From Mustelus asterias (Eukaryota): DNA of 64,000 bases. The stretch spans positions 65,224,001-65,288,000 of the forward strand of contig NC_135822.1 of NCBI RefSeq assembly GCF_964213995.1. The letters are read 5' to 3'. The stretch's first letter is position 1. Each line of letters begins with the position of its first letter. The position numbers were made by a program, and so were the translations under genes. This document shows, one piece after another, positions 3,121 to 63,512 of the stretch. Below the pieces are notes generated by a model. The model did not search any database and had not been told where the DNA came from. It saw nothing but the letters and a program-made list of their open reading frames with translations.

Positions 3121-3456
<336 letters not shown>

Positions 3457-6050: not shown

Positions 6051-6169
6051 CAGTCTTAATCCAAAGATTCACGCAGATTGATCTAGTGTTTGTGGTGTTA
6101 TAATCCATTGTGTGCGCGTGTCTGTTGGGGAGGTCATGCACTCTCAATCCATCAATTCCATTCTCGTTC

Positions 6170-18518: not shown

Positions 18519-20327
18519 GTGGCAAGAGTGAAAGTTGGACCCTTGGAGGACGAGACGGGGGATTTAATAGTGGGAAATGAGGAAATGGCTGAAACTTTAA
18601 ATAAGTTTTTTGTGTCGGTCTTCACGGTGGAAGACACAAATAGTTTACCGAATATTAACGATAGAGGGTTGGTAGGAGGAGAGGTACTCAATACAATTAA
18701 TGTTACCAAGGAGGCAGTGCTTGGTAGACTAATGGGACTGAAGGTGGACAAGTCCCCGGGCCCAGATGGAATGCATCCCAGGGTACTGAAAGAAATGTCA
18801 GAGGTAATAGCGGAAGCGTTAGTGGTTATTTATCAAAATTCGTTGGATTCTGGGGTAATGCCGGCAGATTGGAAAATGGCTAATGTTTAAAAAAGGAAAT
18901 AAGACAAAAGGCGGGTAACTACAGGCCGGTTAGCTTAACGTCTGTAGTTGGGAAAATGCTGGAATCCATCATTCAAGAAGAAATAGCAGGCCATCTGGAT
19001 AAGAATGGTTCGATTAATCAGCAGCATGGATTCATGAGGGGAAAGTCGTGCTTGACGAACTTGTTGGAGTTTTATGAAGATGTGACTAGTGCGGTTGACG
19101 GAGGGGAACCGGTGGATGCGGTGTTTTTGGATTTCCAAAAGACGTTTGATAAGGTGCCTCACAAAAGGTTGCTGAAGAAGATTGGGTCACACGGAGTTGG
19201 GGGTAGGGTGTTAGCGTGGATTGGGGATTGGCTATCCGACAGGAAGCAGAGAGTCGGAATAAATGGGTGCTTTTCTGGTTGGCAGATGGTAACTAGTGGC
19301 GTGCCACAGGGATCGGAACTGGGGCCTCAACTATTTACCATTTATATAGACGATCTGGAGGAGGGGACTGAGTGTAGGGTAACTAAGTTTGCAGACAACA
19401 CAAAGATAAGTGGAAAAGTGAATCGTGTGGAGGGCGTAGAAGGTTTACAGAGAGATTTGGACAGGCTGAGTGAGTGGGCGAGGATCTGGCAGATGGAGTA
19501 TAACGTTGACAAATGCGAGGTTATTCACTTTGGAGGAAATAATAGCAAATTGGATTATTATCTAAATGGAAAAAATTACAACATGCTACTGTGCAAAGGG
19601 ACCTGGGGGTCCTTGTGCATGAGACGCAAAAACCCAGTCTGCAGGTGCAACAGGTGACAAAGAAGACAAATGGGATGTTGGCCTATATCGCAAGGGGGAT
19701 AGAATATAAAAGCAGAGATGTCTTGCTGCATCTGTACAGGGCATTGGTGAGGCTGCAGCTGGAATACTGTGTGCAGTATTGGTCCCCTTATTTGCGGAAG
19801 GATGTATTGGCCTTGGAGGGAGTGCAGAGAATGTTCACCAGGTTGATACGAGAGATGAGGGGTGTTGATTATGAGGAGTGACTGAGCAGATTGGGTTTGT
19901 GCTCGTTGGAATTTAGAAGGCTGAGGGAGGATCTTATAGAGACCTATAAGATAATGAAGGGGCTGGATAGGGTAGAGGTGGAGAGATTCTTTCCACTTAG
20001 AAAGGAACCTAGAACTAGAGGGCACAGCCTCAAAATAAAGGGGGGTCGGTTTAGGACAGAGTTGAGGAGGAACTTCTTCTCTCAGAGGGTGGTGAATCTC
20101 TGGAATTTTCTGCCCACTGAAGTGGTGGAGGCTACCTCGTTGAATATGTTTAAATCACGGATAGATGGATTCCTGATCGGTAAGGGAATTAGGGGTTATA
20201 GGGATCAGGCGGGTAAGTGGAACTGATCCACTTCAGATCAGCCATGATCTTATTGAATGGTGGGGCAGGCTCGAGGGGCTAGATGGCCTACTCCTGCTCC
20301 TATTTCTTATGTTCTTATGTTCTTATG
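18519..20327 (+). mobile_element. CR1 LINE, 5'-truncated, disrupted ORF2 (RT)
   Basis: KSPGPDG, YRPVSLTS, QHGF, DFQKTFD, SGVPQGS, FADN motifs with frameshifts and stops; (ttcttatg)n tail. Confidence 0.95.
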
Positions 20328-21537
20328 ATAAATGGTGATGGAAAGCCAAAATTGAACTAAGTTCTATTGTCAGTGGGATTGATGGTGTCCTCCCCCTTCT
20401 GGTCTAATGTCCAGTGACCTGTAGACTTCCCTCACCATTCCATCCCTCCCCCATCCAAGCTATGCCCTGAGACACCAACTGTCCTCTTGTGACCCGTTAG
20501 GCCTTCCCTACAGCACCTATACCCCGCCACTCGCATTTGCATCATTTCTTGGCACTTACTTCCAGACAGTTAGCTGCAGTGCCTCTTCTGGCCACTGCAC
20601 CACTGTTCTTGGAATAATTAAAGGGCTGCCAACCAATCTGAATGACCAGCTGTTCTTCCTGGTGACAGGCACAAGTCCCACCTTTTGCCAATCAATGCAT
20701 GCCACAGCATGAAATGGCATTGGAGCTACTGGCCGAGTCCCAGCCATCCTGAGAATTCTGACCCCAAAACCTCACAGAAAATGGCAAAAGAAAGTAAAAA
20801 GCTTGAAGAATAAATACAAGAAAACAATCTGACATGAAAATAAATTCCAGAAGCACAGGTGCAGAGGAAAGATCACCAAGAAAAAGCTCCAAAGAAAGTC
20901 ATGGAAGCTGAAGGCAGAGGTTTAAGATTCCTTGCTGTAGCATAAGTCTTCATTGCATTTTGGAAGTTCAGCTTCAAATCCCAGAGCACAGGGTCAGCAG
21001 ACTGGGTACAGGTGAGCTAAATCTTTTCAGGTTCCAGACTACAGAAAGTCCCAAGAAATCTTTAAAATTTTCAGAATCAGAAATGCAATTTGAATAAAGT
21101 CATTCCTAAAAATCCAATCCTGGAGGCGGTGCTTTAGCTCACTCTGAAAGAAAAATAATTAATTGAATACTCCCAGAGAATTGCGACTTTTAAAATCCAG
21201 CTAAAGCACAAGCCAGAATTTGACAAATCTGTGACTTTGAACACAAACACTGACGAAAAGAACTCTGCGGCAGCCATTCCAGCCAGCCCCATTGTTAAAA
21301 ATCTTTTCAAGCTGAGTGTAATTACCATTATAGCAAAACTCACCAAGGCAAGCAGGCATGGAAAAGTTTGGTGTCCTTGAGAAAATCAGTTCTACACTAC
21401 CAGAGTACATCAAGTCGAAGGAGAAAATAAGAAAAAGTCCAGATGAATACCTTTTGATTCTAGTCTGGTGAACTTGTAGATGAAGACATCATAATGCAAA
21501 GCTTCAATGAAATATCAAAAGCTTTTGACAAATATTT

Positions 21538-24992: not shown

Positions 24993-26390
24993 AAATTCAT
25001 TCATGGGATGTGGGCATCGCTGACTGGGCCAGCATGAATTGGGGGTAGGGTGTTAGCGTGGATTGGGGATTGGCTATCCGACAGGAAGCAGAGAGTCGGA
25101 ATAAATGGGTGCTTTTCTGGTTGGCAGATGGTAACTAGTGGCGTGCCGCACGGATCGGTACTGGGGCCTCAACTATTTACCATTTATATAGATGATCGGG
25201 AGGAGGGGACTGAGTGTAGGGTAACAAAGTTTGCAGACGACACAAAGATAAGTGGAAAAGTGAATCGTGTGGAGGGCGTAGAAGGTCTGCAGAGAGATTT
25301 GGACAGGCTGAGTGAGTGGGCGAGGATCTGGCAGATGGAGTATAACGTTGACAAATGCGAGGTTATTCACTTTGGAAGAAATAATAGCAAATTGGATTAT
25401 TATCTAAATGGAAAGAAATTACGACATGCTACTGTGCAAAGGGACCTGGGGGTCCTTGTGCATGAGACGCAAAAACCCAGTCTGCAGGTGCAACAGGTGA
25501 TCAAGAAGGCAAATGGGATGTTGACCTATATCGCAAGGGGGATAGAATATAAAAGCAGAGATGTCTTGCTGCATCTATACAGGGCATTGGTGAGGCCGCA
25601 GCTGGAATACTGTGTGCAGTATTGGTCCCCTTATTTGCGGAAGGATATATTGGCCTTGGAGGGAGTGCAGAGAAGGTTCACCATGTTGATACGAGAGATG
25701 AGGGGTGTTGATTATGAGGAGAGACTGAGCAGATTGGGTTTGTATTCGTTGGAATTTAGAAGGCTGAGGGGGGATCTTATAGAGACCTATAAGATAATGA
25801 AGGGGCTGGATAGGGTAGAGGTGGAGAGATTCTTTCCACTTAGAAAGGAACCTAGAACTAGAGGGCACAGCCTCAAAATAAAGGGGGGTCGGTTTAGGAC
25901 AGAATTGAGGAGGAACTTCTTCTCTCAGAGGGTGGTGAATCTCTGGAATTCTCTGCCCACTGAAGTGGTGGAGGCTACCTCGTTGAATATGTTTAAATCA
26001 CGGATAGATGGCTTCCTGATTGGTAAGGGAATTAGGGGTGATAGGGATCAGGCGGGTAAGTGGAACTGATCCACTTCAGATCGGCCATGATCTTATTGAA
26101 TGGCGGGGCAGGCTCGAGGGGCTAGATGGCCTACTCCCGCTCCTATTTCTTATGTTCTTATGTTCTTATGAATTGCCCACCCCTAAAGAGCCCTTGAGAA
26201 GGTGGTGATGGGACATCTTCTTGAACCATGGTGCTGTTCGGAAGTGAGTTCCAGAGTTTTGACCCAGCGTCAGTGAAGGAATGGTCAGGATGATGTGTGA
26301 CTTGGAGGGGAACTTGTGAATAGTGGTGTTCCCATGTGTCTTCTGCCCTTGTCCTTCAAGGTGGTCGTGGCTGTGGGTTTGGAAGGTGAC
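24993..26390 (-). mobile_element. Older LINE 3' end split by the 25042 CR1
   Basis: gggatgtgggcatcgctg...ccagcat resumes after the CR1 as tgcccacc...cccttgagaaggtggtg; plus-strand relative at 51260-51430. Confidence 0.6.
25042..26167 (+). mobile_element. Young CR1 LINE, 5'-truncated, open 339-aa ORF2 C-terminus
   Basis: FADD motif; near-identical to 19199-20327; 8-bp TSD ATGAATTG at 25034-25041 and 26168-26175. Confidence 0.95.
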
Positions 26391-27477: not shown

Positions 27478-27735
27478 TCATGATGTGGAGATGCCGGCGT
27501 TGGACTGGGGTAAACACAGTAAGAAGTCTCACAACACCAGGTTAAAGTCCAACAGGTTTATTTGGTAGCAAATACCATAAGCTTTCGGAGCACTGTTCCT
27601 TCGTCAGATGGAGTGGAAATGTGCTCTCAAACATTCCACTCCATCTGTCGAAGGAGCAGTGCTCCGAAAGCTTATGGTATTTGCTACCAAGTAAACCTGT
27701 TGGACTTTAACCTGGTGTTGTGAGACTTCTTACTG
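27478..27735 (-). mobile_element. Penelope-like palindromic mini-element (family A)
   Basis: ~39-nt tail 27478-27516, inverted arms 27517-~27622 / ~27631-27735; perfect 13-bp TSD TATCTGATCGAAG at 27465-27477 and 27736-27748. Confidence 0.9.
27575..27611 (-). ncRNA. Minimal hammerhead ribozyme motif (family A)
   Basis: ccat-CTGACGA-aggaacagtgctcc-GAAAGCTT-atgg; the mirror copy at 27641-27677 has a CTGTCGA core mutation. Confidence 0.65.
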
Positions 27736-29549
27736 TATCTGATCGAAGACAGAGGGTGGTGGTGGATGGAAAATTTTCGGATTGGAGGCAGGTTGCTAGC
27801 GGAGTGCCACAGGGATCAGTGCTTGGTCCTCTGCTCTTTGTGATTTTTATTAATGACTTAGAGGAGGGGACTGAAGGGTGGATCAGTAAATTTGCTGATG
27901 ACACCAAGATTGGTGGAGTAGTGGATGAGGTGGAGGGCTGTTGTAGGCTGCAAAGAGACATAGATAGGATGCAAAGCTGGGCTGAAAAATGGCAAATGGA
28001 GTTTAACCCTGATAAATGTGAGGTGATTCATTTTGGTAGGACTAATTTAAATGTGGATTACAGGGTCAAAGGTAGGGTTCTGAAGACTGTGGAGGAACAG
28101 AGAGATCTTGGGGTCCATATCCACAGATCTCTAAAGGTTGCCACTCAAGTGGACAGAGCTGTGAAGAAGGCCTATAGTGTGTAGGCTTTTATTAACAGGG
28201 GGTTGGAGTTTACGAGCCATGGGGTTATGCTGCAACTGTACAGAACCTTGGTGAGACCACATTTGGAATATTGTGTGCAGTTCTGGTCACCTCACTATAA
28301 GAAGGATGTGGAAGCGCTGGAAAGAGTGCAGAGGAGATTTACCAGGATGCTGCCTGGTTTGGAGGGTAGGTCTTATGAGGAAAGGTTGAGGGTGCTCGGG
28401 CTGTTCTCTCTGGAGCGGAGGAGGCTGAGGGGAGACTTAATAGAGGTTTATAAACTGATGAAGGGGATAGATAGAGTGAACGTTCAAAGACTATTTCCTC
28501 AGGTGGATGGAGCTATTACAAGGGGGCATAACTATAGGGTTCATGGGGGTGGGAGATATAGGAAGGATATCAGAGGTAGGTTCTTTACGCAGAGAGTGGT
28601 TGGGGTGTGGAATGGAACATTTAAGCGGTTATTGGATAGGCACATGGAGCACACCATGATGATAGGGAGTGGGATAGCTTGATCTTGGTTTCAGATAAAG
28701 CTCAGCACAACATCGTGGGCCGAAGGGCCTGTTCTGTGCTGTACTGTTCTGTGTTCTATGTTCTAACTCTTCAGAAGCTCATGTGTCTGTAAGGTGTTGC
28801 TGGGGTAAAGAAATAGTGTGAATCTGAGTCATCTTCTTGTGTTTGTATTGAGATCTTTCCAACACATTTATGTCTGGTGTAATATGGCTAATTTTTCTTG
28901 TTTAATTAATACTTTATTCTTTGTGTGATGAGTTCACGAGTAGACTCCTGTGAATTTGTTCAGTAACTTTCCTCCATGGCTTATCTAAAAAAAGTTAGGA
29001 TCTCTCACACCAGGTTTCACTCTGGAATCTGACGTCCAGTTTGAACATCAGCTGGGATTGTCACAGTCAGACAGCGAGAACTAAATACTTCAGAAAGCCA
29101 AAAGGAGTATAGATTGAGAAGGTGTGAAATCAAAAAAAGGAAATTAGAAAAGCAAATTGGGGCAAGAATCAATATTGGCAAATAAAATCAAGGAGAACCC
29201 AAAGATATTTTATTAATACATGAAGAGTAAGAGGATAACTAAGGTAGGACCTATAAAAGACCAAATAGGTGGAGGATGTGGGTATGGTGCTTAATGAATA
29301 CTTTGCATCTGTCTTCACAAAAGAAGGGGACAATGCAGACATTGTATATTCAGAGGAATGTGAAGTATTGGATGTGATAAACATAGGGAGAGAAGAAGTA
29401 TGAAGGGCATTAACATTCTCGAAAGTAGATAAATCATGAGAGCCGGATGAAATGTACCACAACTTGAGTACTGTGTGGTGTTAAAATAAGGTAAGAAGTT
29501 TAACAACACCAGGTTAAAGTCCAACAGGTTTATTTGGTAGCAAAAGCCA

Positions 29550-29586
29550 CACAAGCTTTCGGAGCTCCAAGCCCCTTCTTCAGGTG
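29550..29586 (-). ncRNA. Minimal hammerhead ribozyme motif (mirror copy)
   Basis: Reverse complement of 30892-30928. Confidence 0.7.
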
Positions 29587-29795
29587 AGTGGGAATTCTGT
29601 TCACAAACAGAGCATATAAAGACACAAACTCAATTTACATGAATAATGGTTGGAATGCGAATACTTACAACTAATCAAGTCTTTAAGAAACAAAACAATG
29701 TGAGTGGAGAGAGCATCAAGACAGGCTAAAAAGATGTGTATTGTTTGCAGACAAGACAGCCAGTGAAACTCTGCAGGTCTAGGCAACTGTGGGGG

Positions 29796-30234
29796 TTACA
29801 AATAGTGTGACATGAACCCAATATCCCGGTTGAGGCCGTCCTCGTGTGTGCGGAACTTGGCTATCAGTTTCTGCTCAGCGACTCTGCGCTGTCGTGTGTC
29901 GCGAAGGCCGCCTTGGAGAACGCTTACCCGAATATCAGAGGCCGAATGCCCGTGACCGCTGAAGTGCTCCCCAACAGGAAGAGAACAGTCTTGCCTGGTG
30001 ATTGTCGAGCGGTGTTCATTCATCCGTTGTCGCAGCGTCTGCATAGTTTCCCCAATGTACCATGCCTCGGGACATCCTTTCTTGCAGCGTATCAGGTAGA
30101 CAACGTTGGCCGAATTGCAAGAGTATGTACCGTGTACCTGGTGGATGGTGTTCTCACGTGAGATGATGGCATCTGTGTCGATGATCCGGCACGTCTTGCA
30201 GAGGTTGCTGTGGCAGGGTTGTGTGGTGTCATGG
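29796..30234 (-). pseudogene. GIY-YIG endonuclease C-terminal fragment of a Penelope-like ORF (left arm, frame open)
   Basis: PCHSNLCKTC Cys-rich linker, NVVYLIRC, WYIGET, RMNEH, EHF, AEQKLI, GLN motifs; no RT domain and no native start. Confidence 0.9.
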
Positions 30235-30244
30235 TCACTGTTCT

Positions 30245-30682
30245 CCATGACACCACACAACCCTGCCACAGCAACCTCTGCAAGACGTGCCGGATCATCG
30301 ACATAGATGCCATCATCTCACGTGAGAACACCATCCACCAGGTACACGGTACACACTCTTGCAATTCGGCCAACGTTGTCTACCTGATACGCTGCAAGAA
30401 AGATGTCCCGAGGCATGGTACATTGGGGAAACTATGCAGACGCTGCGACAACGGATGAATGAACACCGCTCGACAATCACCAGGCAAGACTGTTCTCTTC
30501 CTGTTGGGGAGCACTTCAGCGGTCACGGGCATTCGGCCTCTGATATTCGGGTAAGCGTTCTCCAAGGCGGCCTTCGCGACACACGACAGCACAGAGTCGC
30601 TGAGCAGAAACTGATAGCCAAGTTCCGCACACACGAGGACGGCCTCAACCGGGATATTGGGTTCATGTCACACTATTTGTAA
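30245..30682 (+). pseudogene. GIY-YIG fragment (right arm), frameshifted
   Basis: Mirror of the left arm with a 1-nt deletion near 30403 (aagaaagatgtcc vs aagaaaggatgtcc). Confidence 0.9.
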
Positions 30683-30891
30683 CCCCCACAGTTGCCTAGA
30701 CCTGCAGAGTTTCACTGGCTGTCTTGTCTGGAGACAATATACATCTTTTTAGTCTGTCTTGATGCTCTCTCCACTCACATTGTTTTGTTTCTTAAAGACT
30801 TGATTAGTTGTAAGTATTCGCATTCCAACCATTATTCATGTAAATTGAGTTTGTGTCTTTATATGCTCTGTTTGTGAACAGAATTCCCATT

Positions 30892-30928
30892 CACCTGAAG
30901 AAGGGGCTTGGAGCTCCGAAAGCTTGTG
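30892..30928 (+). ncRNA. Minimal hammerhead ribozyme motif
   Basis: cac-CTGAAGA-a-GGGGCT tgg AGCTCC-GAAAGCTT-gtg: helix I cac/gtg, core, helix II, palindromic AGCT helix III. Confidence 0.7.
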
Positions 30929-31778
30929 TGGCTTTTGCTACCAAATAAACCTGTTGGACTTTAACCTGGTGTTGTTAAACGTCTTACTGTGTTTACCCCA
31001 GTCAACGCCGGCATCTCCACATCGTGTTAAAATAAGTCAGGAAGGAAATTGTGGAGGGTCTGACCATTATTTTCCAATCCTCATTGGATACAAATGAGGT
31101 GCCGGAGGTTTGGAGAACTGCTAATGTTGCACCTTTGCTTAATAAGGGAGTGAGAGATAGACCAAATAATTACAAGCCAGTCTGTCTGACCTTGGTAGTG
31201 GACGAATTATTGGAATCAATTCTGAGGGACAGGATAAACCGTCACTCAGAAAGGCATGGATTAATCAAGGACAGTCTGCATGGACTTGTTAAGATAAGGT
31301 TGTGTCTGACTAATTTGGTTGAATTTTTTGAGGAAGTAACAAGAGGATTGATGAGGTTAGTGCAGTTGATGCAGTTTACGTCAATTTTAGCAAGGCTTTT
31401 GACCAATGTCCCACGTGGCAGACTGGTTAAAGAAATAAAATCCATGGGATCCTGGGAAATGCAGCAAGCTGGATACAAAATTGGCTCGGTGGAGGAACCA
31501 AAGGATAATTGGTGATGAATGTTTTTGTCACTGGGAGGCTGTTTCCAATGGGTTCCGTAGGACTCAGCACTGGGTCTCCTGCTTTTCATGGGAAATATTA
31601 ATGATTTAGAGATAAATGTCAGGGGAATGATTAATACATTTGCAGATGACACAAAATTGGCTGCATGGTTGACAGCGAGGAGGATTGTTGTAGATTACAG
31701 GAAGATAGCAATGGGCTGGTCGGGTGGGCAGAAAAGTGGCAAATGGAATTCAACCCAGAACAGTGTGAGGTGATGCAT

Positions 31779-32665: not shown

Positions 32666-33370
32666 GTAGAGTCGTAGAGATTTATAGCATGGAAACAGGC
32701 CCTCCGGCCCAACTTGTCCATGCTGCCCTTTTTTTTCAAACCCCTAAACTAATCCCAATTGCCCGCATTTGGCCCATATCCCTCTATACCCATCTTACCC
32801 ATGTAACTGTCTTTTTAAAAGATAAAATTGTACCCGCCTCTACTACTACTTCTGGCAGCTTGTTCCAGACATTCACCACCCTGTGTGTGAAAAAATTGCA
32901 GTAAGAAGTTTTAACAACACCAGGTCCTGAACACTCATCGGAAGAAGGAGCTTAAGGCTCCGAAAGCTTGTGGCTTTTGCTACCAAATAAACCTGTTGGA
33001 CTTTAACCTGGTGTTGTTAAACTTCTTACTGTGTTTACCCCAGTCCAACGCCGGCATCTCCACATAATGAAAAAATTGCCCCTTTGGACACTTTTATATC
33101 TCTCCCCTCTCATCTTAAACCTATGCCCTCTAGTTTTAGACTCCCCTCCCTTTGGGAAAAGATATCGACTATCTAGCTGATCTGTGCCCCTCATTATTTT
33201 GTAGACCTCTATAAGATCACCCCTCAGCCTTCGACGCTCCAGAGAAAAAAAGTCCCAGTCTATCCAGCCTCTCCTTATAACTCAAACCATCAAGTCTCGG
33301 TAGCATCCACGTAAATCTTTTCTGCACTCTTTCTAGTTTAATAATATCCTTACTAGTTTAATAATATCCT
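32666..33370 (-). mobile_element. CR1 3' fragment in TMEM230 intron 1, interrupted
   Basis: RGHRFK, RGNFF..RVV motifs on the minus strand. Confidence 0.85.
32900..33067 (+). mobile_element. Penelope-like mini-element (family B) with short inverted 5' arm
   Basis: 26-nt inverted arm, then direct 3' end with tail; 12-bp TSD TGAAAAAATTGC at 32888-32899 and 33068-33079. Confidence 0.85.
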
Positions 33371-35949: not shown

Positions 35950-37283
35950 TGAGATGGAGTACTTATACTAAGTGTTTTCTTGGGCTGTCATGTACTAAGG
36001 AATAGGTTATGTTTGAGCCTGATCAGGTGTTTTCTTTTGTAGTTAAGCCTCTGCGTTATGTTCCACTGAATTGCATTTTAAGCACCCTCATTATGAAAGG
36101 GAGGTCTGTCATTGACATTACAAAACTTTGCAGGAATTTTCCAGTTTTGTTTCTAGGATTTCAGTAGTGAGATGATTGTTGGCTGAAATTTTTGTACTGT
36201 GTCCACTTGAAGTATGAAAGACCCTTCCAAACCTGAGATGTGTCGGGACAGTGAAGTGCTGGTGGATGCACACAAAATATTTTGCACAGCATAGAAGTGT
36301 GTCGACTCAGTGAACTTTTCTATTTTGTCTTCATCCTGAATTTCCAGTTTTCTGGGCTTGAAAGGCAGATAATGGGATAATGTGTTATATTTACACAAAG
36401 CTTCAAAATCAGTTGGGGAAAATGAATTGAAACGGGTCCTGCTTCATTGGTAGCCCATTCACTCGGGTCTCAGGCTGATTTACATGCAAATGCTGTGATG
36501 GATTTTATTTTGTGATTTGAAAAGTGTAAGTATGATAAACTTCACATATAAGCCTTGGATGCCTTAAAATCAAGTGACGTTGCAATATAGGCCTGTAAAT
36601 TTCATTTGAGGTTTTCCGTTCAAGCAGTCTTCATGTTGCAAAACAAAATCCCTTCAATGTCAGTCTGTAATTGGATTGGGTCTTCTGTTGACCTGCCCTC
36701 CCCCATTCCTGGTTTGACTTGTTGGTTTCACACTTACTGCAAACTCATATTTGCTACTAACAATCTATCGGATAGAGGAATCAAGTCCGTATGTACCAGG
36801 ATGTTGAAATGCCTAGGGTCATCCTAGCTGCCTGTCTGCACTTAGACTTAAGATAGCAGATAGAACATGAACACTGGTGGGAACCGGCTAGCTTTTACGC
36901 CCACAGTCTTTCTGCCAGAGACTGGTCCCAAAGCTTTCTTGGGTTTTGCATAATGTGGGCACTGGTGTCAACCCTTTTATCCTGCAGATCTTCCGCTAAC
37001 TGCCATTTGTGGCAGCGCTTTCGCATGAAAGGATACAAAAGTTGAACATGTTTGTGTTCAGTTTGGAATTGAGCTTGGCTACCATTTTCCTTCTGTCGAA
37101 GAAGAATGTCAGCAGGTGATATTATTCAAGGCAGAGATAGACAGGCTTCTGATAGATAAGGGAGTCAAGGATTATGGGGAGAAGAAGATAAAGTGGAGTT
37201 GACACCACAGCCAGATCAGTCATGATCTTATTGAATGGTGGAGCTCAAAGGACTGAATGTGGCCTCCTGTGTGTAAGTTCCTA

Positions 37284-37533
37284 GTAAGAAGTCTCACAAC
37301 ACCAGGTTAAAGTCCAACAGGTTTATTTGGTAGCAAATACCATAAGCTTTCGGAGCGCTGCTCATTCGTCAGATGGAGTGGTTATCTGTTCTCAAACAGT
37401 GCAAACAGACACAGAAATCAAATTACAGAATACTGATTAGAATGCAAATCTCTACAGCCAGCCAGGTCATAAATGTACAGACAATGTGGGTGGAGGGAGC
37501 ATTCAACACAGGTTAAAGAGTTGTGTATTGTCC
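37284..37533 (-). mobile_element. Penelope-like single-arm insertion (family A), no tail
   Basis: 12-bp TSD TGTAAGTTCCTA at 37272-37283 and 37534-37545; hammerhead-like motif at 37340-37376 (minus). Confidence 0.85.
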
Positions 37534-39429: not shown

Positions 39430-42400
39430 CAATTTCAGAGCATATAAATTAGGCCTCTCTGTGCGACTTGAACAAGAGTGCTGGGTGACTGAGGGATATC
39501 AGTGAAGAGGGAAAGAGGTGCTCCTTTGCTTTTCTGACATCTTCACCCAATAGGAACTGATTCTTACTCCAGTTCTTGGGAAGAATCTACTTGGTTGGTG
39601 AGTATCTGGTAAGTGGTTATGGTTTATTCTATTCCTGAAGTTTAAAATATACAAACAGTGGGATGGTGAATAAAGTATAAAAGGAAAGTAATTGAATAAA
39701 ATAGTTAATTAAAACACAATGAGGATGGTAGGACAGGTGATGTATCATGGCTGCAGCATGTGGGAGGCCTGAATGCCAGTGTGATGCTGGTCTGTTTGTG
39801 GCTCAAGGAGCTTTGGCTCAGAGTCATTGAGCTAGATATCAATCTGCAGATGCTGTGGTGCAGAGGGTTGGGGCAAGTTACCTGGCCTCCTTGTATCAGG
39901 AGGCAGTTGCACCTCTTTTGATTGGTCAGCGGCCAGAGAAAGGAGGGTGTGACTGCGAATGAGGTAGGTAAGCGCATCCAGATGGCACAAGGGCAGGAGC
40001 CTCAACCTTTGCAATTGATCAATAAGTCTGAGGTTCTTTTAGCTTGTTTGGTTGAGAATGGGGGCTGAAGGGTGGATGAGCTGACTGGCCATGGCACCAT
40101 GGTAGAGGAAGCCATTCAAGTGTAGGGGAGTGTCGTGCTAGTAGGGGACAGTATAGCGAGGAGGATTAACAGTTCCCTGCAGCAAAGCGTGAAGTCCAGA
40201 AGGGTATGTTGCCTGCTGGGAGGTGCCAGGAGTCAGGACATTGAGCCAAGGTTGGAGAGGAGCTTGCAGTGGGAGGGAGAGGGGAAGGATCCAATTGTCA
40301 TGTTCCATTTCGGTACCAACGACATAGGGACAAGGCAGGACAAGGAAAGACATTCTGCATAGTCAGTATAAGGAGCTTGGCACCAACTTTAGAAGAAGAA
40401 CCCCAAAGGTAATAATCTCTTGATTATTACTTGAGCCATGTGCAAATTGGCGAGTAAGATTAGAGAAGTTAATGTGCAGCTCAAAGACTGGTGTGATAGA
40501 GGTGGGTTCCGGCTTGTGTGGCACTGGCACTAATAGGAAAAGTGGGGCATGTACTGTTGAGATGGTCTACACTTCAACTGTGCTGGGGCCACTGTTCCAG
40601 CAAATCACATAATTAGGGAAATAGAGAGGATTTTAAACTAAATAGCAGGGGACAAGAGACTTTCGGGATCTTCCCAAATTTGGGAAGATATAGTAAATCA
40701 AAGAGTAAAGACAAGGCAAGAGAGAAAATTACTAATGTAGGAAATGATAAGCAGACTGACAGAAAGGGTTAGAAGATAAGGCTAGAGATTTTAAAAATGA
40801 CAAGGCAAAACTAAAGGCTCTGTATTTAACATACATAGCATTCAAAATAAAACAGATGAACTGATGGCAATAAATAAATACAATCTGACAGTCATTACAG
40901 AGACATGGTTGCAGGATGACATAGAATGGTACTTGAATATTAAAGAGTATGTGACATTTAGGAAGGACTGGAAGCTAGGCAAAGATGAAGAGGGTGGCTC
41001 TGTTAATTAATAATTAGCATACTCGAGAGGAACAACCTAAGTTCAGGAATCCAGGATGAAGAAGCGGTTTGGGTAGAGATGAGGGTGGCATGGTGGCACA
41101 GTGGTTAGCACTGCTGCCTCACAGCGCCAGGGACCCGAGTTTGATTCCCGGCTTGGGTCTCTGTCTATGTGGAGTTTGCACATTCTCCCTGTGTCTGCGT
41201 GGGTTTCCTCCGGGTGCTCCGGTTCCGTCTCACATTCTAAAGGATGTGCTGGTTAGCTGCATTGACCCGAACAGGCGCCGGACTGTGACAACGAGGGGAA
41301 TTTCACAGTAACTTCATTGCAGTGTTAATGTGAGCCTTACTTGTGACTAATAAATCAACTTTACTTAGAGATGAGAAATGATAAAGGCCATTTGTGGGAG
41401 TGGTGTTGTACAGGCCCCCTAACAATACCCACATGATAGGACGGAGTATACAGAAAGAAATAATGGGAGCTCATCAGAAAGATATTGCAATAGTCATGAG
41501 GGATTTTAAACTCCTTATAGACAGGAGAAATCAAATGGGCGCATGTAGCCTCGGTGAGTTCCTGGAATATTTTTGGGATAGTTTCTTATTCTGGAGCCAG
41601 CCATAGAGCAGGTTTTATGCGACCTGGTATTGTGAGATAGGATTAATTAATGATTTCATAATTAAGATGGTCGAGGTAGTAGCAATCAGAATATAATTTA
41701 ATTTTACATTTGAGGATCTAATACTAGTATTTTAAACTCAAATAATGGCAATTATGGGAACATGGAAGTAAGTTTGCTGATTTGGTTCAGAGAGGTCAGT
41801 GGCACTCATTTATGACGAGATTTCACAATAGATGCATTCAACCAAGAAAGAAAACTTCCAAGGGGTGAACCCACCAATCTTGGTTAACTGAAAAATTTAA
41901 AGGTCGTGTCCAACTTAAAGAAAAGCATATAATTGTGCAAGGATGGGTGGCACTTTGGCCAGAATATAAAAAAACAGCCAGAATGACTGAAGTGTTAGTA
42001 AAGAGGGAAAAATTAGAGCACAAGAGAATGCTAACTAGAAATATAAAAATGGCAAGAATTTCTATAGATATGGACAAACGAAGAGTTAACAAAGTGAGTG
42101 TTGGTTCTCTGGAAATTGAGTCTGGGGAATTAATAATGGAAAATAAGGAGATGGCAGATGAATTGAAGAGTATTTTGCATCAACATTCATCTTCACTTCA
42201 GAGGATACAAGTAACATCCTAAAAATAGCTGTAAATCAGGAAATAGAAGGGAGAAACTCAAGAAAATTACAGTTAGCAATGAAGTCATGCTGAGAAAATA
42301 GTTGGAGCTGCAGGCTCATCATTCTAGTCTTGATGGACTTCATCCTATGGTCTTAAAAATGGCTAGTGATGTAGTTGATGTAGTTGGTTTTAATTTTCCA

Positions 42401-45384: not shown

Positions 45385-45690
45385 GGGGGCAGCACGGTGG
45401 CACAGTGGTTAGCACTGCTGCCTCACAGCTCTAGGGACTTGGGTTTGATTCCTGGCTTGGGTCACTGCGTGGATTTCCTCCAGGAGCTCCGGTTTCCTCC
45501 CACAGTCCAAAGATGTGCAGGTTAGGTGCAATGGCCATGCTAAATCACCCCTTAGTGTCCTGGGATGTGACTGTTAGATGGATTAGCGAGGTAAATATGT
45601 GGGGTTTCGGGGATAGGGCCTGGGTGGGATTGTGGTCGGTGCAGACCCGATGGGCCAAATGGCCTCCTTCTGCACTGTCGGGATTCTATG
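45385..45690 (+). mobile_element. HE1-like V-SINE with CR1-type tail
   Basis: ggcagcacggtggcacagtggttagcactgctgcctcac head; tail gatgggccaaatggcctccttctgcactg...ttctatg. Confidence 0.9.
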
Positions 45691-46081
45691 CAAAGTTGGA
45701 AAAATGTGATGGTGGAAGTGTTGCAGGAAGTAACGTAATAACTTTACATTGGAGAGCTAACTTTGAACAAAATGGTTTCAAGTACCTCGGGTCCAAACTG
45801 GACGATGCTTCCATAGATAGACAACATAAGAGGAAGCAAGGGATAGGGCATGAGGAAAGAAGAAATGGGCTTCATTCAGAAATATTTTCCCTCAAGGGTA
45901 CTTGGATACTAGGAACAGCAGGTCTGAAATTTTCATGTGCCTGAGAGGCACATATTTTCTGATGTGAAGACCAGTCTGAGGGAAATGTGAAAGGGAAGTC
46001 AGCGATCCCCTCGTCTGTCACTGTGTGAAAACAGCCAACGTGCTTCAGAAGAAGGGGCTTTATATCAAATAAGCTCTGTAT

Positions 46082-46393
46082 TCGCTTCTCGGCCTTTTGG
46101 CTAAGATCAAGTGTAGTTATGCGCATGCTGCACTTGGTTGAGGTCATTAGGTTACATTGAAGTTTCATATGAAGCAATTTTTAAAAGCGGTCTCTCGGCC
46201 AAGATGCAAATGAGCTCAAGTCTTGGAGGAGGAATTGCTTTCCCTCCTCCAATCAGCTTGGCTCATGTAGATCAGGCCCAGGACAGGGTAAATGGTCGCT
46301 CGCCCTGTCTTGCCAGACTGGATAGGAAATGTCTCAACTTGTTGAGACTCTGAATTGGACTTGATTTGGTTGAATTGGAAAAGTATTAAAAAA
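46082..46393 (+). mobile_element. U2 snRNA-headed SINE-like element, copy 1
   Basis: 46082-46117 matches U2 nt 2-37 (TCGCTTCTCGGCCTTTTGGCTAAGATCAAGTGTAGT); non-U2 body; A-rich tail; 13-bp TSD AAGCTCTGTATTC at 46071-46083 and 46394-46406. Confidence 0.85.
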
Positions 46394-46579
46394 AAGCTCT
46401 GTATTCCTGGGCTTTCGTCTTGGGAAAGGCCCCCACATTTTGGGAACAGGCGTTGCTCACACAATCTCATCCTGAAATACTGAAAACTATTCTGAAAGAA
46501 AGAGAAAGCTCGGCTGATTATCCAAAGGAATCTGACGTTGCCAGAGACGTTTTGAAAGGGTGACCTTCAATTCCAGACC

Positions 46580-48637
46580 TAGAACCATAGAACCATAGAA
46601 AATTACAGCTCAGAAACAGGCCTTTTGGCCCTTCTTGTCTGTGCCGAACCATTTTATGCCTAGTCCCACTGACCTGCACTTGGACCATATCCCTCCACAC
46701 CCCTCTCATCCATGAACCCGTCCAAGTTTTTCTTAAATGTTAAAAGTGACCCCGCATTTACCACTTTATCCGGCAGCTCATTCCACACTCCCACCACTCT
46801 CTGCGTGAAGAAGCCCCCCCTAATATTCCCTTTAAACTTTTCTCCTTTCTCCCTTAACCCATGCCCTCTGGGTTTTTTTTCCCCTAGCCTCAGCGGAAAA
46901 AGCCTGCTTGCATTCACTCTATCTAAACCCATCAAAATCTTATACACCTCTATCAAATCTCCCCTCAATCTTCTACGCTCCAGGGAATAAAGTCCCAACC
47001 TATTCAATCTCTCTCTGTAACTCAGCTTCTCAAGTCCCGGCAACATCCTTGTGAACCTTCTCTGCACTCTTTCAATCTTATTTACATCCTTCCTGTAACT
47101 AGGTGACCAAAACTGTACACAATACTCCAAATTCGGCCTCACCAATGCCTTATATAACCTTACCATAACACTCCAACTTTTATACTCGATACTCCGATTT
47201 ATAAAGGCCAATGTACCAAAGGCACTCTTTACGACCCTATCCACCTGTGACGTCACTTTTAGGGAACTCTGTACCTGTATTCCCAGATCCCTCTGTTCAA
47301 CTGCACTCTTCAGAGTCCTAACATTTACCCTGTACGTTCTTCTTTGGTTTGTCCTTCCTATGTGCAATATCTCACACTTGTCTGCGTTAAATTCCATTTG
47401 CCATTTTTCAGCCCATTTTTCTAGTTGGTCCAAGCTTTGAAAACCTTCCTCACTGTCCACTACACCTCCAATCTTTGTATCATCAGCAAACTTGCTGATC
47501 CAATTTACCACATTATCATCCAGATCATTGATATAGATGACAAACAACAATGGACCCAACACCGATCCCTGCGGCACACCACTAGTCACAGGCCTCCACT
47601 CAGAGAAGCAATCCTCCACAACCACTCTCTGGCTTCTTCCATTGAGCCAGTGTCTTATCCAATTTACTACCTCCCCATGTATACCCAGCGACTGAACCTT
47701 CCTAACTAACCTCCCATGAGGGACCTTGTCAAAGGCCTTGCTGAAATCCAGGTAGACAACATCCACCGCCTTCCCTTCATCCACTTTCCTGGTAACCTCC
47801 TCGAAAAACTCTAATCGATTGGTCAAACATGACCTACCACGCACAAAGCCATGTTGACTCTCCCTAATAAGTCCCTGTCTATCCAAATATTTGTAGATCC
47901 TATCCCTTATCACACCTTCCAATAACTTGCCCACCACCGACGTCAAACTTACTGGCCTATAATTTCCTGGATTTCTTTTGGAACCTTTTTTAAACAACGG
48001 AACAACATGAGCCACCCTCCAATCATCCGGCACCTCCCCCATGAATACTGACATTTTAAATATGTCTGCCAGGGCCCCTGCAAGTTCAACACTAGCTTCC
48101 CTCAAGGTCCGTGGGAATACCCTGTCCGGTCCTGGGGATTTATCCACTCTGATTTGCCTCAAGACAGCGAGCACCTCCTCCCCTTTAATCTGTAAAGGTT
48201 CCATGGCCTCCCTACCAGTTTGCCCTATTTCCGTAGACTCCATGCCCGTTTCCTCAGTAAATACAGATGCAAAAAAACCATTTAGTATCTCCCCCATCTC
48301 TTTTGGTTCCATACACAGTGTACCACTCTGGTCTTCAAGAGGACCAATTTTATCCCTCACTATCCTTTTGCTCCTAACATACCTATAGAAGCTCTTTGGA
48401 TTTTCCTTCACTCTGTCTGCCAAAGCAACCTCATGTCTTCTTTTAGCCCTCCTGATTTCCCTCTTAAGTAGCTTCTTGCACTTTTTATACTCCTCGAGCA
48501 TCTGATGTGTTCCTTGCTGCCTGTACACTTCATACAACTCTCTCTTCCTCTTAATCAGTGTTACAATCTCCCTCGAGAACCAAGGTTCCTTATTCCTATT
48601 TACTTTGCCTTTAATCCTGACAGGAACATACAAACTC
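46580..48637 (-). mobile_element. Young CR1 LINE, 5'-truncated, 657-codon open ORF2 segment
   Basis: Continuous RT ORF 46660-48633 (KSPGPD, YRPVSLTS, QHGF, DFSKAFD, GVPQGS, FADD); (ctatggtt)n tail. Confidence 0.97.
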
Positions 48638-51023
48638 TTTTATATTATGCTGTTTCAACTTCATTTCGCTTCTGTGTTTACTTGTCCATAATTGTGGATG
48701 CTATTTTTGCCTGTTAAAATGGGATAGCAATATATTCCTCACTATCCAAGCTATTCTACGCGTTCTGTGGTATCATTACAGCACAGATGGTCATATGGTC
48801 CACCGAATCTATACTTTTATTTCATCCTCACCAGCTATCCTGTCTGCTTGCTCCATGTTTGTCAAGCAAAACTATTGACGGGAATGTACTTCAACTTCGT
48901 TTGTCTCACATTCTAATTGTCATCTACGTAATCTTTTCTCCAACGCCTCTTCAGTTATTTTTGGGATTAGTCCAGAACCCTGGTGACATTGAAATAAGAC
49001 GCAGGAGAAAATACTGAACAACAGTCTCAATGTGGAAAACACAAAAAAACAGAAGAACTGGGAGACGAGAAAAGACCAAGGGCCATCCCGCCAGATACAA
49101 AGCTGACGGAGACGTTGACTAATCGTAGCAATCAATCTCGATCAATTAGCCGACAACAGACCCAAAACATGGGCTGAGTTAAACTCCTCATGGTGGCGAG
49201 CTTGGGGAAACGCAGGTCTACAGTCACCACTTACATGTCATGTCTCAAATTACTGATATACTGTATCCCAAAATGTTACTTTCAAGAATGAATTCGCACT
49301 GACTGCGTCCACTGTCTCCCTCCTGTTCTGGATAATGTGATGTGGAGAAGCAGCTTGTTGTGGTCTGTGTTCACTGGTTCCTTTAGAATGTTATGGAGCA
49401 ATCGTATCACCTCTCAACTTTCTAATTCCTGTGAGAACTTGTCCCAGTTACACAATTGCTCATGATTCAATCCCTCTGTGCCCTCAATCGCGAATCAACG
49501 TAAAGGAGAGACAGCGAAGAAGGAAGTGGCCGTAAGGAATTAAACTGAAAGAATGGAGGGGTTGATTAAAGTTCAAGGCAACCGAAGGACAAGGTGCGGC
49601 TCCTCCGGCGGTTCGGCTGGTAATGGCACCTGCCAAATATGGGATCAGCCTATTATTTGTACTATTGTAATTCACAGCCTCCAGCTTTACTGCAATCTGT
49701 GATGGGATGCGGGGGGCGGGGGGGATATTTTTCAGTGTTGATTTATCTGACAAACCATGACTTCATAATTCAGCAATGCATTCCAGGGTATAGACAGACA
49801 GACAACCCTCCACGGAACTCCTGCAGACCACAAAACTATGAAGTAGTCTAAACCTAATCGGCATAATGCATGGACATGGTCTCACTTGAGGGCGTTTGGA
49901 TCATGCGGAGAAACTGAGAATGTTTCACGTTTAACGAGCCCCTTGAGGTCTATTTATCTGCTGTTGTAACATTGTGATATTTCCCTTTTTCTCTCCCTTT
50001 GACAATCATTCTCCCCTCTTGTTCTAAATGTTATGCCTCTTGAAGGGGTGCTCTTCTGCGAATAACCACAGTTCTCCAGTTCCTCACCTAGTGGCTCGAT
50101 TATAGTGATGTTGCCATAATAGCTGACAGCAGTGGGCGCCACAGGCGAGCCAGTCCTCAGTTATTCTTCCGGTACTGACACTGACCAGAAGGACTTTCTG
50201 GACACCGAAGGGAGGTAGATTTGGGACCAGGAAGAGATCAGCCATGATCTGATTGAATGGCGGAGCAGGCTGGAAGGGCTGAATCTGCCTACTTCTGCTC
50301 CTAATTCCTATGTTCCTACTTCTGTGGTGACCGCTCAACGACAAATTCTCTGTCCACAATGCTCCCTCCCTGAATATAACAGATCTCACACCAGCACCTC
50401 AATTGCATTAGAAGCTATTGGGAATTAAATGATGCGAGTTATTAGAATAATGTAATTGGACTAAAGTACGAACAGTTTTCTCTGGACGGAGGTCTATTCC
50501 AAAAGCTGAAGCGAATAAAAGTGATCATTTTTTTAATCATGGCATCAAGTACAAATTAAAACACAATGTCAAGAGTGTCTGGTTAACCATGTCAACTGAA
50601 CCATAAAATCTGCCAGAGAATTGCTGCCATTCTTGACTTCCCTTACAATCAAAGAAGTTTTCAGCTCAGGAGAAGGCCATTTGGCCCAACTCTTTAATGA
50701 AAGCAATCCAAAACTAAAATGCCCTCCCCCACAGCCTTGTATCTTTCTCTCAGTTAAATACTGTCTTTATTCACCTTGCCTAGAAACAATTAAATGGTCT
50801 CTGCCTCGACTCCCTGACAAATTGTTCCATGATTGAACCACCCTCCTGAGCTTTCTTCTCACTCACAATACCAAGTTTTAAATTGATGGACCCTCCTTGC
50901 TTCTGTCTCCAACTGGAGGAAACTGGACTTTCCTGACACAAGATCAAAACGTTCAATGTTTGGGAAAAAAAGCATTTTCTCTCCCCGTGGGGGAAAAGTT
51001 TCTCCTCATAATGCAAGTGTCTT

Positions 51024-51252
51024 CTCCCAACCGACTCAAGAACAGCTTCTTCCCTGCTGCTGTCAGACTTTTGAATGGACTTACCTTGCATTAAGTTGAT
51101 CTTTGTCTACACTCTAGCTATGACTGTAACAACACATTCTGCACTCTTTCATTTCCTTCTCTATGAACGGTATGTTTTGTCTGTATAGTGTGCAAGAAAC
51201 AATACTTTTCACTGTATGTTAATACATGTGACAATAACAAATCAAATCAAAT
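51024..51252 (+). mobile_element. Rex1/Babar-type LINE 3' end
   Basis: Encodes NRLKNSFFPAAVRLLN; (caaat)n tail. Confidence 0.7.
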
Positions 51253-52429: not shown

Positions 52430-52705
52430 ATTCATAGAATCCCTACAGTGCAGAAGGAGGCCATTTGGCCCATCGAGTCTGCACCAACAGCAATCCCACC
52501 CAGGCCCTATCTCTGAAACCCCACATATCTACTGTGCCAATCCCCCCAATCTACACATCCTAGACACTAAGGGGCAATTTAGCACAGCTAATCAACCTAA
52601 CTTGTACATCTTTGGACTGTGGGAGGAAACCGGAGCACCCGGAGGAAACTCACGCAGACACGGGGAGAACGTGCAAACTCCACACAGACAGTGACCCGAG
52701 CCAGG
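52430..52705 (-). mobile_element. HE1-like V-SINE lacking most of the head
   Basis: ggaggaaaccggagcacccggaggaaac...gcagacacggggagaacgtgcaaactccacacagacagtgaccc. Confidence 0.85.
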
Positions 52706-54669: not shown

Positions 54670-54978
54670 TTTAAAATAAGTTATATCCAATCAAATCCAA
54701 TCAAAGTCCAATTCAAGGTCTCAACCAGCGAGATGTTACAGATCCAAGCTGACAAGACAGGCTGCTCTCTTCCTGTCTTGGGCTTGATCTGCATGATCCA
54801 AACTGATAGGAGCAGGCATTGCACCCCTCCAGTGCTTGATTTCATTTGCATCTTAGCCAAAAGGCCTAGATGCAGTTTTTAAAAAATGCTTCAAATGAAA
54901 CCCCAGTGAAACCTTATTGACTTCTATCAAGTGCAGGACAGCAAAACTACACTTGATCTTAGCCAAAAGGCCGAGAAG
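54670..54978 (-). mobile_element. U2 snRNA-headed SINE-like element, copy 2
   Basis: 54946-54978 is the reverse complement of U2 nt 5-37; body collinear with copy 1; imperfect TSD ggggaagtagaact (54656-54669) / ggggaggtagaact (54983-54996). Confidence 0.85.
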
Positions 54979-54997
54979 TAAGGGGGAGGTAGAACTA

Positions 54998-55114
54998 AGA
55001 GAGAAAATGGTGGAAAATCTCAGCAGGTCTGGCAACATCTGTAAGGAGAGAAAAGAGCTGACGTTTCGAGTCCAGATGACCCTTTGTCAAAGCTAAAAGC
55101 TTTGTCAAAGCAAA
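54998..55114 (-). mobile_element. Penelope-like single-arm insertion (family C)
   Basis: Reverse complement of 13291-13385 including the hammerhead-like motif; imperfect 13-bp TSD at 54985-54997 and 55115-55127. Confidence 0.75.
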
Positions 55115-55897: not shown

Positions 55898-56558
55898 CAG
55901 AAAACAAAGAATAAAGTACACGACAGCACAGGAACAGGCCCTTCGGCCCACCAAGTTTGTGCTGACAGATGCCTCTCTGATCTCATTTTTTTGTCCATAC
56001 ATCCCTCTATATCCCTGCCTATATATATATGCCTCTATTCCCTGCCTATTCATGTATCTACAGTAAGAAGTTTAACAACACCAGGTTAAAGTCCAACAGG
56101 TTTATTTGGTAGCAAAAGCCACACAAGCTTTCGAGGCTCTGAGCCCCTTCTTCAGGTGAGTGGGAATTCATGTATCTATCCAGATGCCTCTTGAAACGTT
56201 GTAATAGAATTTGCTTCCACCACCTCCTCTGGCAGCGCATTCCAGGCATTTACCACTCTGTGTGTGAAAATCTTGCCCCTTGCATCTCTTTTAAACTTTC
56301 CCTCTTTCACTCTCAACCTATGCCGCCTAGTAATTGACCCTTCGACCCTGGGAAATAGAGTCTGACGATCCACTCTATACAAGCCTGTCATAATCTTGTA
56401 AACCTCTATCAGGTTCCCCCCTCATCCTCCGAGGTTCCAATGAAAACAATCCAAGTTTGTTCAACCTGTCTTCATTGTTCATATCCTCCAACTCCAGGCA
56501 ACATCCAAGTCATCTCTTCTACATCCTTTCCAATGCATCAAGATCCTTCCGGTCGAGT

Positions 56559-59989: not shown

Positions 59990-60280
59990 TTGTTGATTTA
60001 ATTTATTATTGTAACATATGATGGAAAAAACATTGTTTCGTGCTATATAGACAAAGCATACTGTTCATAGAGTACATAGGGGAGAAGGAAAGGAGAGAGT
60101 GCAGAATGTAGTGTTACAGTCACAGCTAGGGTGTCGAGAAAGATCAACTTAATATAAGGTAGGTCCATTCAAAAGTCTGATGGCAGCAGGGAAGAAGCTG
60201 TTCTTGAGTCAGTTGGGACGTGATCTCAGACTTTTGTATTTTGTCCTCAACAGAAGAAGGTGGAAGAGAGTATGTCGGGT
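59990..60280 (-). mobile_element. Rex1/Babar-type LINE 3' end
   Basis: Reverse complement of 51024-51252 (gtccattcaaaagtctga...gggaagaagctgttcttgagtc). Confidence 0.7.
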
Positions 60281-62730: not shown

Positions 62731-62894
62731 ATGATGTGGAGATGCCGGCGTTGGACTGGGGTGAACACAGTAAGAAGTCTCACAACACTAGGTTAAAGTC
62801 CAACAGGTTTATTTGGTAGCAAATACCAGTTACATTGGTATTTGCTACCAAATAAACCTGTTGGACTTTAACCTGGTGTTGTGAGACTTCTTAC
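62731..62894 (-). mobile_element. Penelope-like palindromic mini-element (family A), 164 bp
   Basis: Tail plus ~59-bp inverted arms that stop just short of the hammerhead motif; 13-bp TSD TTTATTATCCTTA at 62718-62730 and 62895-62907. Confidence 0.9.
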
Positions 62895-63512
62895 TTTATT
62901 ATCCTTAGCCAGGGTAGCAGTTAGGGTGCCGCAGTTGGCCTCAACTTCTCTGGTGTAGGGAGGTATCATATCTCTGATTGATCATGCCCCTAATTACTAC
63001 CAAGCACCTTGTGTGTGTGGGTTTGGTTCTGTTTTAGTTGCTGTGGGGAGGAGGTTCTTCCATGGACGTTGATTTGGGGGAACAAAAAGAACGCCTTCTT
63101 GCATTGGGATTCCAAAATCCACCCTATGATGTAAACTGGGCAGGTTCCATTGTACAAGAAGCCAAGGAAAAATAAAAACACCTGTATTTTAAATTGTGTG
63201 CGATATTAAGGATTAAAGTTGGGCAGGGCTCACAGCTGTTTCTACTCGGTCTTGCAGTAAGAATATAGTATCTCTCCCTGATGAGTGAATTAGAAAAAAT
63301 ATTAGCTTTTGGTCAAACTCATGATGATGCTTCACTGGGGGAAAATGTCCCAAACCAAAGGTAAATAAATAGCAATTTTGTGCTGAAGGTTTTTTCTCCG
63401 CCTTTTCCTCCCTCCCTTTTAAAATGCTTGTTCCTCCCTGGGGTGTGTTTCACAGGTGCGAGTGTTTTTCTGAGTGATAATTCTTCTCCTTAATTGTTCG
63501 GTGTCTTGTGAA

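Follow-up and report, generated by a model that had tools for sequence, protein, structure and literature searches.

A 64,000-nucleotide stretch of Mustelus asterias contig NC_135822.1 (assembly GCF_964213995.1, positions 65,224,001 to 65,288,000 of the forward strand; hereafter the window, to which all coordinates refer) carries two copies of an element of about 312 nucleotides (nt), without coding capacity, that begins with the 5' end of U2, a small nuclear RNA (snRNA), departs from U2 after nt 37 in both copies, and continues with a segment complementary to that head, a second U2-derived piece, a structured body and an A-rich end. Features that appear to be new are the complementary segment, which we denote the anti-head, and the fixed junction, in an snRNA-headed element, at the site used by the U2-specific retrotransposon Keno. 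Neither the anti-head nor the contrast in conservation between the head and the body had been noted in the first-pass annotation. The evidence supports a dispersed family as opposed to a one-off U2 retrocopy. The explanation that we favor, and to which we would give about an even chance, is that of a non-autonomous retroposon family of the SINEU type, that is, snRNA-headed short interspersed elements (SINEs), which would have originated independently in elasmobranchs, would be transcribed by RNA polymerase (Pol) II and mobilized by an L1/Tx1-type enzyme, and would carry a U2 head that is refreshed or selected and hidden by the anti-head.

Architecture, dispersal and age of the two copies

The components of the two copies, including their target site duplications (TSDs), are as follows.

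Copy 1, plus strand
46082-46393, +, whole element, about 312 nt
46071-46083, +, 5' TSD, 13/13 identical to 46394-46406; its final 2 nt double as U2 nt 2-3
46082-46117, +, U2 head, nt 2-37; Rfam U2 score 51.3 bits, 36/36 identical to human U2
46127-46153, +, anti-head, against U2 nt 11-37; its core 46128-46138 pairs with 46106-46116 (U2 nt 26-36)
46171-46186, +, 5 nt complementary to U2 nt 4-8, followed by a T5/A4 run that closes the 5' domain
46188-46212, +, second, decayed U2 head, 19/24 identical to the first head; octamer-type motif at 46204-46211
46213-46350, +, structured body with hairpins at 46223-46252, 46279-46312 and 46331-46348; folding z -4.9
46351-46393, +, T/G-rich short repeats and A-rich end, 34/42 identical to copy 2
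46394-46406, +, 3' TSD, 13/13 identical to 46071-46083

Copy 2, minus strand
54670-54981, -, whole element, about 312 nt
54996-54983, -, 5' TSD, 13/14 against 54669-54656; at the edge of the dispersed repeat 54994-55094
54946-54978, -, U2 head, nt 5-37; Rfam U2 score 46.5 bits, 33/33 identical to copy 1 and to human U2
54912-54936, -, anti-head; its core 54936-54926 pairs with U2 nt 26-36
54843-54873, -, second U2 head (U2 nt 4-33), 27/30 with one insertion; extended stem-loop I; octamer-type motif at 54851-54844
54715-54842, -, structured body with a hairpin at 54780-54753; folding z -3.5
54670-54714, -, T/G-rich short repeats and short A-rich end
54669-54656, -, 3' TSD, 13/14 against 54996-54983

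The first-pass annotation of the window had described two collinear copies of about 310 bp, each with a U2 5' end stopping at nt 37 and with its own TSD of 13-14 bp, and all of this is borne out. A global alignment spans the whole of both copies, with 26 gap columns and identity at 238 of 299 aligned bases (BLAST E 5e-47), and the structure is common to 2 of 2 copies. Once the U2 parts are set aside, homology persists both in the spacer that follows the first head (local score 73, compared with 34 for the best of 1000 shuffles) and in the body (133 compared with 32), where 94 of 127 positions are identical. In Rfam searches of the window, U2 was the only family to reach its gathering score, with one match at each copy. 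The U2 similarity of the first head ends at nt 37 in both copies; positions 54982-54979 of copy 2 are either decayed U2 nt 1-4 or extra bases.

The insertion sites argue that the copies were inserted separately. Among random pairs of 30-nt zones, an exact 13-nt repeat occurred by chance in 2 of 1000 and the one-mismatch equivalent in 4 of 1000. No flank homology was found at the insertion points, and no target repeat common to both copies was found either, the dispersed repeat mentioned above adjoining copy 2 only. Searches of the window with blastn and nhmmer recovered nothing beyond the two copies and palindromic echoes of them, with no further copy and no body lacking the U2 head, and two scans for body motifs in the GTDB genome collection, as a check for host contamination, gave 0 and 0 matches. 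Because the TSDs are distinct, the flanks unrelated and the junction the same in both copies, and because no headless body is present in the window, the dispersed family that had been proposed earlier is supported. The alternative that one old insertion was duplicated together with its surroundings, or that the resemblance is due to chance, can be dismissed as highly improbable: the copies are a mere 8.3 kb apart, but duplication is contradicted by the different TSDs and by the sole flank matches (43 bp at 77%), which lie in CR1 ends distant from the insertion points, and chance by the E value given above.

The copies moreover look like young insertions of source elements that were already about 22% diverged. 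Across U2 nt 5-37 they are identical at 33 of 33 positions, compared with 204 of 263 (about 78%) elsewhere (Fisher p 8e-4), and the TSD halves agree at all but 1 of 27 positions (p 0.01 on the assumption that each copy has aged by 11%, half of the pairwise divergence), in a test to which TSD finding itself contributes by favoring good matches. It is the combination of an exact head with a 78% identical remainder and near-identical TSD halves that points to youth, and such young insertions of diverged sources form the pattern of a propagating family with subfamilies, not that of a duplicated one-off retrocopy.

The second, degenerate U2 head that had also been annotated is evident in copy 2. 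In copy 1, the 19/24 level is reached by 52 of 4907 random windows, some of which overlap the first head, so that its identification rests on the alignment with copy 2. The second head stops near nt 33, not 37. A candidate third U2-like piece within the body was not significant (1407 and 612 of 3000).

The anti-head

The segment of about 70 nt after the first head is present, as annotated, but it is not neutral filler: it contains the anti-head, which is complementary to the head and is newly recognized here. The predicted RNA duplex between head and anti-head has an energy of -36.0 kcal/mol in copy 1, a strength attained by 0 of 2000 dinucleotide shuffles and 0 of 4919 genomic 69-mers, and of -32.3 kcal/mol in copy 2, attained by 0 of 2000 shuffles and 6 of 4919 genomic 69-mers, the head of copy 1 being used in both computations. 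The pairing is biased towards the strand of the element, with -36.0 versus -13.9 on the opposite strand for copy 1 and -32.3 versus -20.4 for copy 2. In copy 1, when the distal helix is included, there are 20 Watson-Crick and 8 G.U pairs, and in the full-length fold the pairing reaches U2 nt 11-22; the additional pairing of 46171-46186 has a probability of about 0.8 in the isolated 5' domain and of only about 0.15 in the full-length fold. The central 11-bp helix over U2 nt 26-36 is predicted with a probability of about 1 in the full-length folds of both copies, and it spans most of U2 nt 33-38, which we take to be the branch-point-binding stretch.

Transitions that keep G.U pairs predominate, by 7:1 (p 0.035) in copy 1 and by 2:0 in copy 2, the two copies not being independent, and at the DNA level the anti-head of copy 2 aligns to the reverse complement of the head at a score reached by 3 of 2000 shuffles. 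The complementarity itself is thus demonstrated, and selection on the pairing is suggested only. The sense-antisense-sense order of the U2 pieces suggests a single inverted triplication of the U2 5' end.

Body, tail and transcription signals

The folding of the copies is strong (z -5.2 and -4.7). Among Rfam matches at E<=10 for the two copies, U2 alone comes near its cut-off; a U6, guide-RNA, signal recognition particle (SRP) or ribozyme origin of the spacer or body was considered and rejected, with no credible match at that threshold (6 and 4 rows), and ribozyme families, such as would form an R2-type leader, are likewise absent at E<=10 from both copies, which keep the U2 leader. No tRNA similarity was found in the copies, nor any Pfam match in the reading frames that overlap them. 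The annotated A-rich end is short, with about 6-8 A in copy 1 and 3-4 A in copy 2. The tails contain 2 and 3 CCAAT-type words. A dimer model, in which the spacer is an older copy of the tail, was not significant (288, 88, 332 and 122 of 1000 shuffles).

With respect to transcription, an internal Pol III promoter was rejected: judged by consensus sequences, neither copy has an A box and copy 2 alone has a B-box match, at the chance level (0.08 expected per copy), and internal T-runs, which lie in the head and the spacer (positions 14 and 96-98 of the element), occur in both copies. Neither copy resembles a functional U2 snRNA gene, there being no U2 sequence past nt 37, no Sm site (a T-run near the U2 Sm-site position fails the Sm consensus) and no upstream distal or proximal sequence element (DSE, PSE); the 300 nt upstream of each copy contain neither an octamer nor a PSE core. 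snRNA enhancers have the octamer as their core. In both copies, an exact motif of the octamer type lies within the second U2 head, where it arose by changes from the U2 sequence; given that such a motif occurs in 3% of random 312-nt windows, these copies counted, and was spotted after the fact, we treat it as a lead only.

Target sites and the mobilizing enzyme

Both TSDs start with AG-Y-TCT-R, and these starts resemble U2 nt 35-42 minus nt 38. The two TSDs are identical at 7 of 12 positions, as are 4.2% of random A-starting pairs, and alike at 11 of 12 in purine/pyrimidine terms (0.3% jointly with the identity); this similarity is weak evidence, with the test chosen after the data had been seen and two sites only. 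The TSDs begin about 3-4 nt ahead of the Keno/Utopia nick position. U2 nt 39 onward is absent downstream of both copies, where the resemblance is limited to a short stretch that contains TCT and is offset from the junction.

The 13-14-bp TSDs and the A-rich end fit an enzyme of the L1/Tx1 clade better than they fit the CR1 and the presumably Penelope-like elements of the window. For insertions of the L1 type, TSD length is reported to peak at 14-16 bp (PMC2912911).

Relationship to known elements

SINEU elements were reported from crocodilians, and found in no other group, by Kojima (2015, PMC4494074). According to the available text of that report, they are characterized by repeated additions of U1 or U2 sequence, oligo-T, the absence of a promoter and a Keno-related partner; SINEU-1E and SINEU-1F carry two U2 pieces, the heads of SINEU-2 were replaced through recombination with U1, and the retrotransposon Tx1-11_Crp bears a U2 head (PMC4494074). 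The class features recovered here are the U2-derived 5' head, a length of 312 nt (below 500 bp), non-coding character, the lack of a Pol III promoter and internal oligo-T. The closest parallel is SINEU-1, in particular 1E and 1F, which share with the present element the short U2 5' head, the repeated U2 pieces and the A-rich end (PMC4494074), along with a unique 3' body without a known partner among long interspersed elements (LINEs), internal T-runs, no recognizable promoter and a length below 500 bp. Unlike the crocodilian SINEU-1, however, the present element resides in an elasmobranch, has its junction fixed at nt 37, occurs as young-looking copies with intact 13-14-bp TSDs, and shows no sign of insertion into one target transposon; it also has an antisense U2 segment that pairs with the head, of which the SINEU text, as available, makes no mention (PMC4494074). 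SINEU-3 likewise contains a short (32-bp) U2 5' piece, and its reported TSD is also AG followed by a pyrimidine-rich stretch, but it comprises an internally deleted U2 gene with 83 bp from the middle of U2, whereas no U2 sequence past nt 37 is found here. Of the earlier suggestion of a shark SINEU-like family, the elasmobranch origin is upheld by CR1 similarity (see below) and the SINEU likeness is supported as a working analogy, in which the element would work like SINEU; membership of the crocodilian families is not, the host setting it apart. No snRNA-headed SINE of cartilaginous fishes, nor any such family outside crocodilians, was found among the papers listed in a literature search whose scope excluded Repbase Reports, Dfam and subscription journals, which may catalogue it.

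Two groups of U2-targeting retrotransposons bear on the junction. Keno, a U2-specific member of the Tx1 clade, inserts in U2 with its 5' junction at nt 37 (PMC6136364, citing Kojima and Fujiwara 2004), and the 3' flank of both Utopia and Keno starts at U2 nt 39 (Kojima and Jurka 2015, PMC4640811). The present element resembles Keno in that U2 is broken after nt 37, and differs from it in lacking open reading frames (ORFs) and U2 nt 39 onward, and in having 13-14-bp TSDs and dispersed sites. Utopia, of the NeSL clade, shares the U2 target region, and its weakly specific families use U2-like sites with a 3' flank starting TCT; unlike the present element, it has a 5' junction at nt 38 or a 20-bp TSD, a 3' junction directly at TCT, ORFs, and TSDs that are rare off target, and no chondrichthyan appears in Table 1 of the Utopia report (PMC4640811). 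Finally, 3'-truncated or chimeric snRNA retrocopies made by L1 also combine a U2 5' fragment with a TSD and other non-LTR hallmarks (PMC4476161, PMC5322556); in contrast to these one-off events, a 275-nt body and the junction are common to diverged copies here.

The favored explanation and its alternatives

In the SINEU-type scenario that we favor, the U2 5' end would have undergone an inverted triplication, to sense, antisense and sense units, on a structured body that is probably the 3' end of an L1/Tx1-clade element. Transcription of several source copies would be by Pol II, with promoters that lie outside the element, because the T-runs at positions 14 and 96-98 would halt Pol III. An L1/Tx1-clade ORF2 protein may then use target-primed reverse transcription, starting at the A-rich end, to copy the RNA, generating the 13-14-bp TSDs, with a mild preference for sites that start with AG-pyrimidine-TCT. 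The first head would be kept exact by refreshment from cellular U2 through homologous template switching, by selection, or by both, and the anti-head may lock the branch-point-binding stretch of U2 in a helix, keeping the RNA from snRNP (small nuclear ribonucleoprotein) assembly and from competition in splicing.

Several observations weigh against this scenario. An inverted duplication would pair by its origin alone, without selection; between the copies, two-sided changes affect 0 of 45 pairs and one-sided changes 6, with the structure derived from the same two sequences; and the anti-head of copy 1 is not significant at the DNA level (540 of 2000 and 160 of 2000). When copy 2 is folded at full length, pairing with the anti-head is confined to U2 nt 26-36, and nt 7-25 retains its own stem-loop. 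Copy 2 has an A-tail of just 3-4 nt. No L1/Tx1 fragment was recognized among the 242 frames (at least 65 amino acids) scanned in the window, the reverse transcriptase (RT) matches being CR1-like. Two copies only have been seen, and the copy number of 400-88,000 per Gb, obtained from one further copy in 63 kb, is an extrapolation.

The next most likely explanation, though unlikely on balance, is that the element is an ORF-less partner of a U2-targeting Tx1 element of the Keno type, with source copies inside U2 genes after nt 37. The U2 promoter would provide each transcript with a fresh 1-37 leader, the anti-head would sequester it, and L1/Tx1 priming on the A-rich end would disperse the copies. 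The nt-37 junction in both copies, which is the Keno site (PMC6136364), the exact first head beside a decayed second head, the supply of a promoter, and the AG-Y-TCT-R starts of both TSDs, with their likeness to U2 nt 35-42 without nt 38, all speak for this possibility, as does the clustering with Keno of Tx1-Mar, the proposed partner of crocodilian SINEU (PMC4494074). However, U2 nt 39 onward, expected in a transcript of a U2 gene, follows neither copy; the TSDs start about 3-4 nt before the nick and were compared post hoc; the Keno junction implies no TSD; the upstream octamer and PSE core are lacking, as noted above; and the second head ends near nt 33. Moreover, ORF-less bipartite derivatives are reported only from RTE, Ingi, Vingi and R2 in the available text (PMC5786205), and single-stranded stretches are in any case where truncated snRNA retrocopies cluster (PMC4476161). 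Of the earlier proposal of a Keno or Utopia derivative driven by a U2 promoter, there remain the nt-37 junction and a weak likeness of target sites; the absence of U2 nt 39 onward and the 13-14-bp TSDs do not fit it. A link to Keno through the junction is plausible but unproven, and its most specific form, a promoter-borrowing SINE that is ORF-less, resides within U2 genes at the Keno site, is driven by the U2 promoter, has its leader neutralized by antisense pairing and has thousands of dispersed copies, is in our judgment doubtful.

Independent formation of chimeras, in which a headless SINE or LINE 3' end comprising the anti-head, the old head and the body gained U2 1-37 by a template switch on each occasion, would account for exact heads on diverged bodies, and the literature documents chimeras of snRNAs with LINEs as well as repeated additions at the 5' end (PMC4476161; PMC4494074). 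We nevertheless regard it as improbable: both bodies in the window bear the head at the same base, whereas the additions in SINEU-2 differ from one another by as much as 22 nt (PMC4494074), and the spacer is complementary to a head that would, on this account, usually be absent. Even less probable is an origin without a self-propagating family, in which a small number of host genes encode a structured variant of U2 RNA and the copies are their processed pseudogenes. The strong folding, the exact head and the T-run near the Sm-site position are compatible with such an RNA, but the T-run fails the Sm consensus, U2 similarity does not extend past nt 37, the branch-point-binding stretch is sequestered, and a high copy number is implied by the presence, 8 kb from each other, of two retrocopies whose parents are 22% diverged.

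Genomic surroundings

The window is rich in repeats. The 3' end of copy 1 is separated by 190 bp from a young CR1-type LINE (46660-48639, minus strand), which is in the opposite orientation to copy 1 and has an unbroken 659-amino-acid RT frame (ORF 46663-48639). Among the best 120 of 7838 matches to the ORF2 of this LINE, with named proteins only considered and three bacteria-labelled entries at 63-72% that look like contamination, a stingray protein comes closest of the named relatives, with 85% identity across 60% of the query, followed by a catshark protein at 60% and bird and turtle proteins at 38-53%; other CR1 fragments of the window are 78-80% identical to a catshark protein (five named proteins compared). 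A protein atlas placed the host at the level of phylum and no more finely. Two CR1 fragments, at 19194-20328 and 25036-26171, are 97% identical over 1136 bp, which points to recent activity.

The short dispersed repeat that adjoins copy 2, with members at 13231-13382 (an inverted pair), 15319-15419 and 54994-55094, is presumably Penelope-like. A second short-repeat family (27478-27738, 29485-29744, 30733-31033, 32932-33076, 37283-37532, 56059-56169 and 62731-62899) often occurs in inverted or tandem partial copies, and a GIY-YIG frame at 29799-30317 suggests that it represents Penelope termini. Two pairs of dispersed repeats of about 230 bp were also noted, 51025-51250 with 59993-60218 (78% identical) and 45465-45690 with 52433-52657 (85%). 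A weak GDSL-like match at 40126-40359 (plus strand; E 3e-4, below the cut-off) is possibly a remnant of a CR1/L2 ORF1 esterase, and the long open frames at 6082-7351 (plus strand) fall in a pyrimidine-rich low-complexity stretch without a Pfam match. The sole piece of a host gene recognized in the window is an exon of an EBF/COE transcription factor at 3145-3306 (minus strand; Pfam COE1_DBD positions 29-82, E 1.5e-28), both copies lying more than 42 kb to its 5' side.

Implications

snRNA-headed SINEs are known from one lineage, and the manner of their transcription has yet to be explained (PMC4494074). If cartilaginous fishes have a second family, apparently a younger one, this design must have evolved more than once, and the element described here, with its intact TSDs, its anti-head and a junction that is fixed, makes the question of transcription testable. 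Should the promoter-borrowing SINE prove to be real, a U2-targeting Tx1 element would for the first time be matched with an ORF-less partner, and how snRNA-headed SINEs are transcribed would be answered directly.
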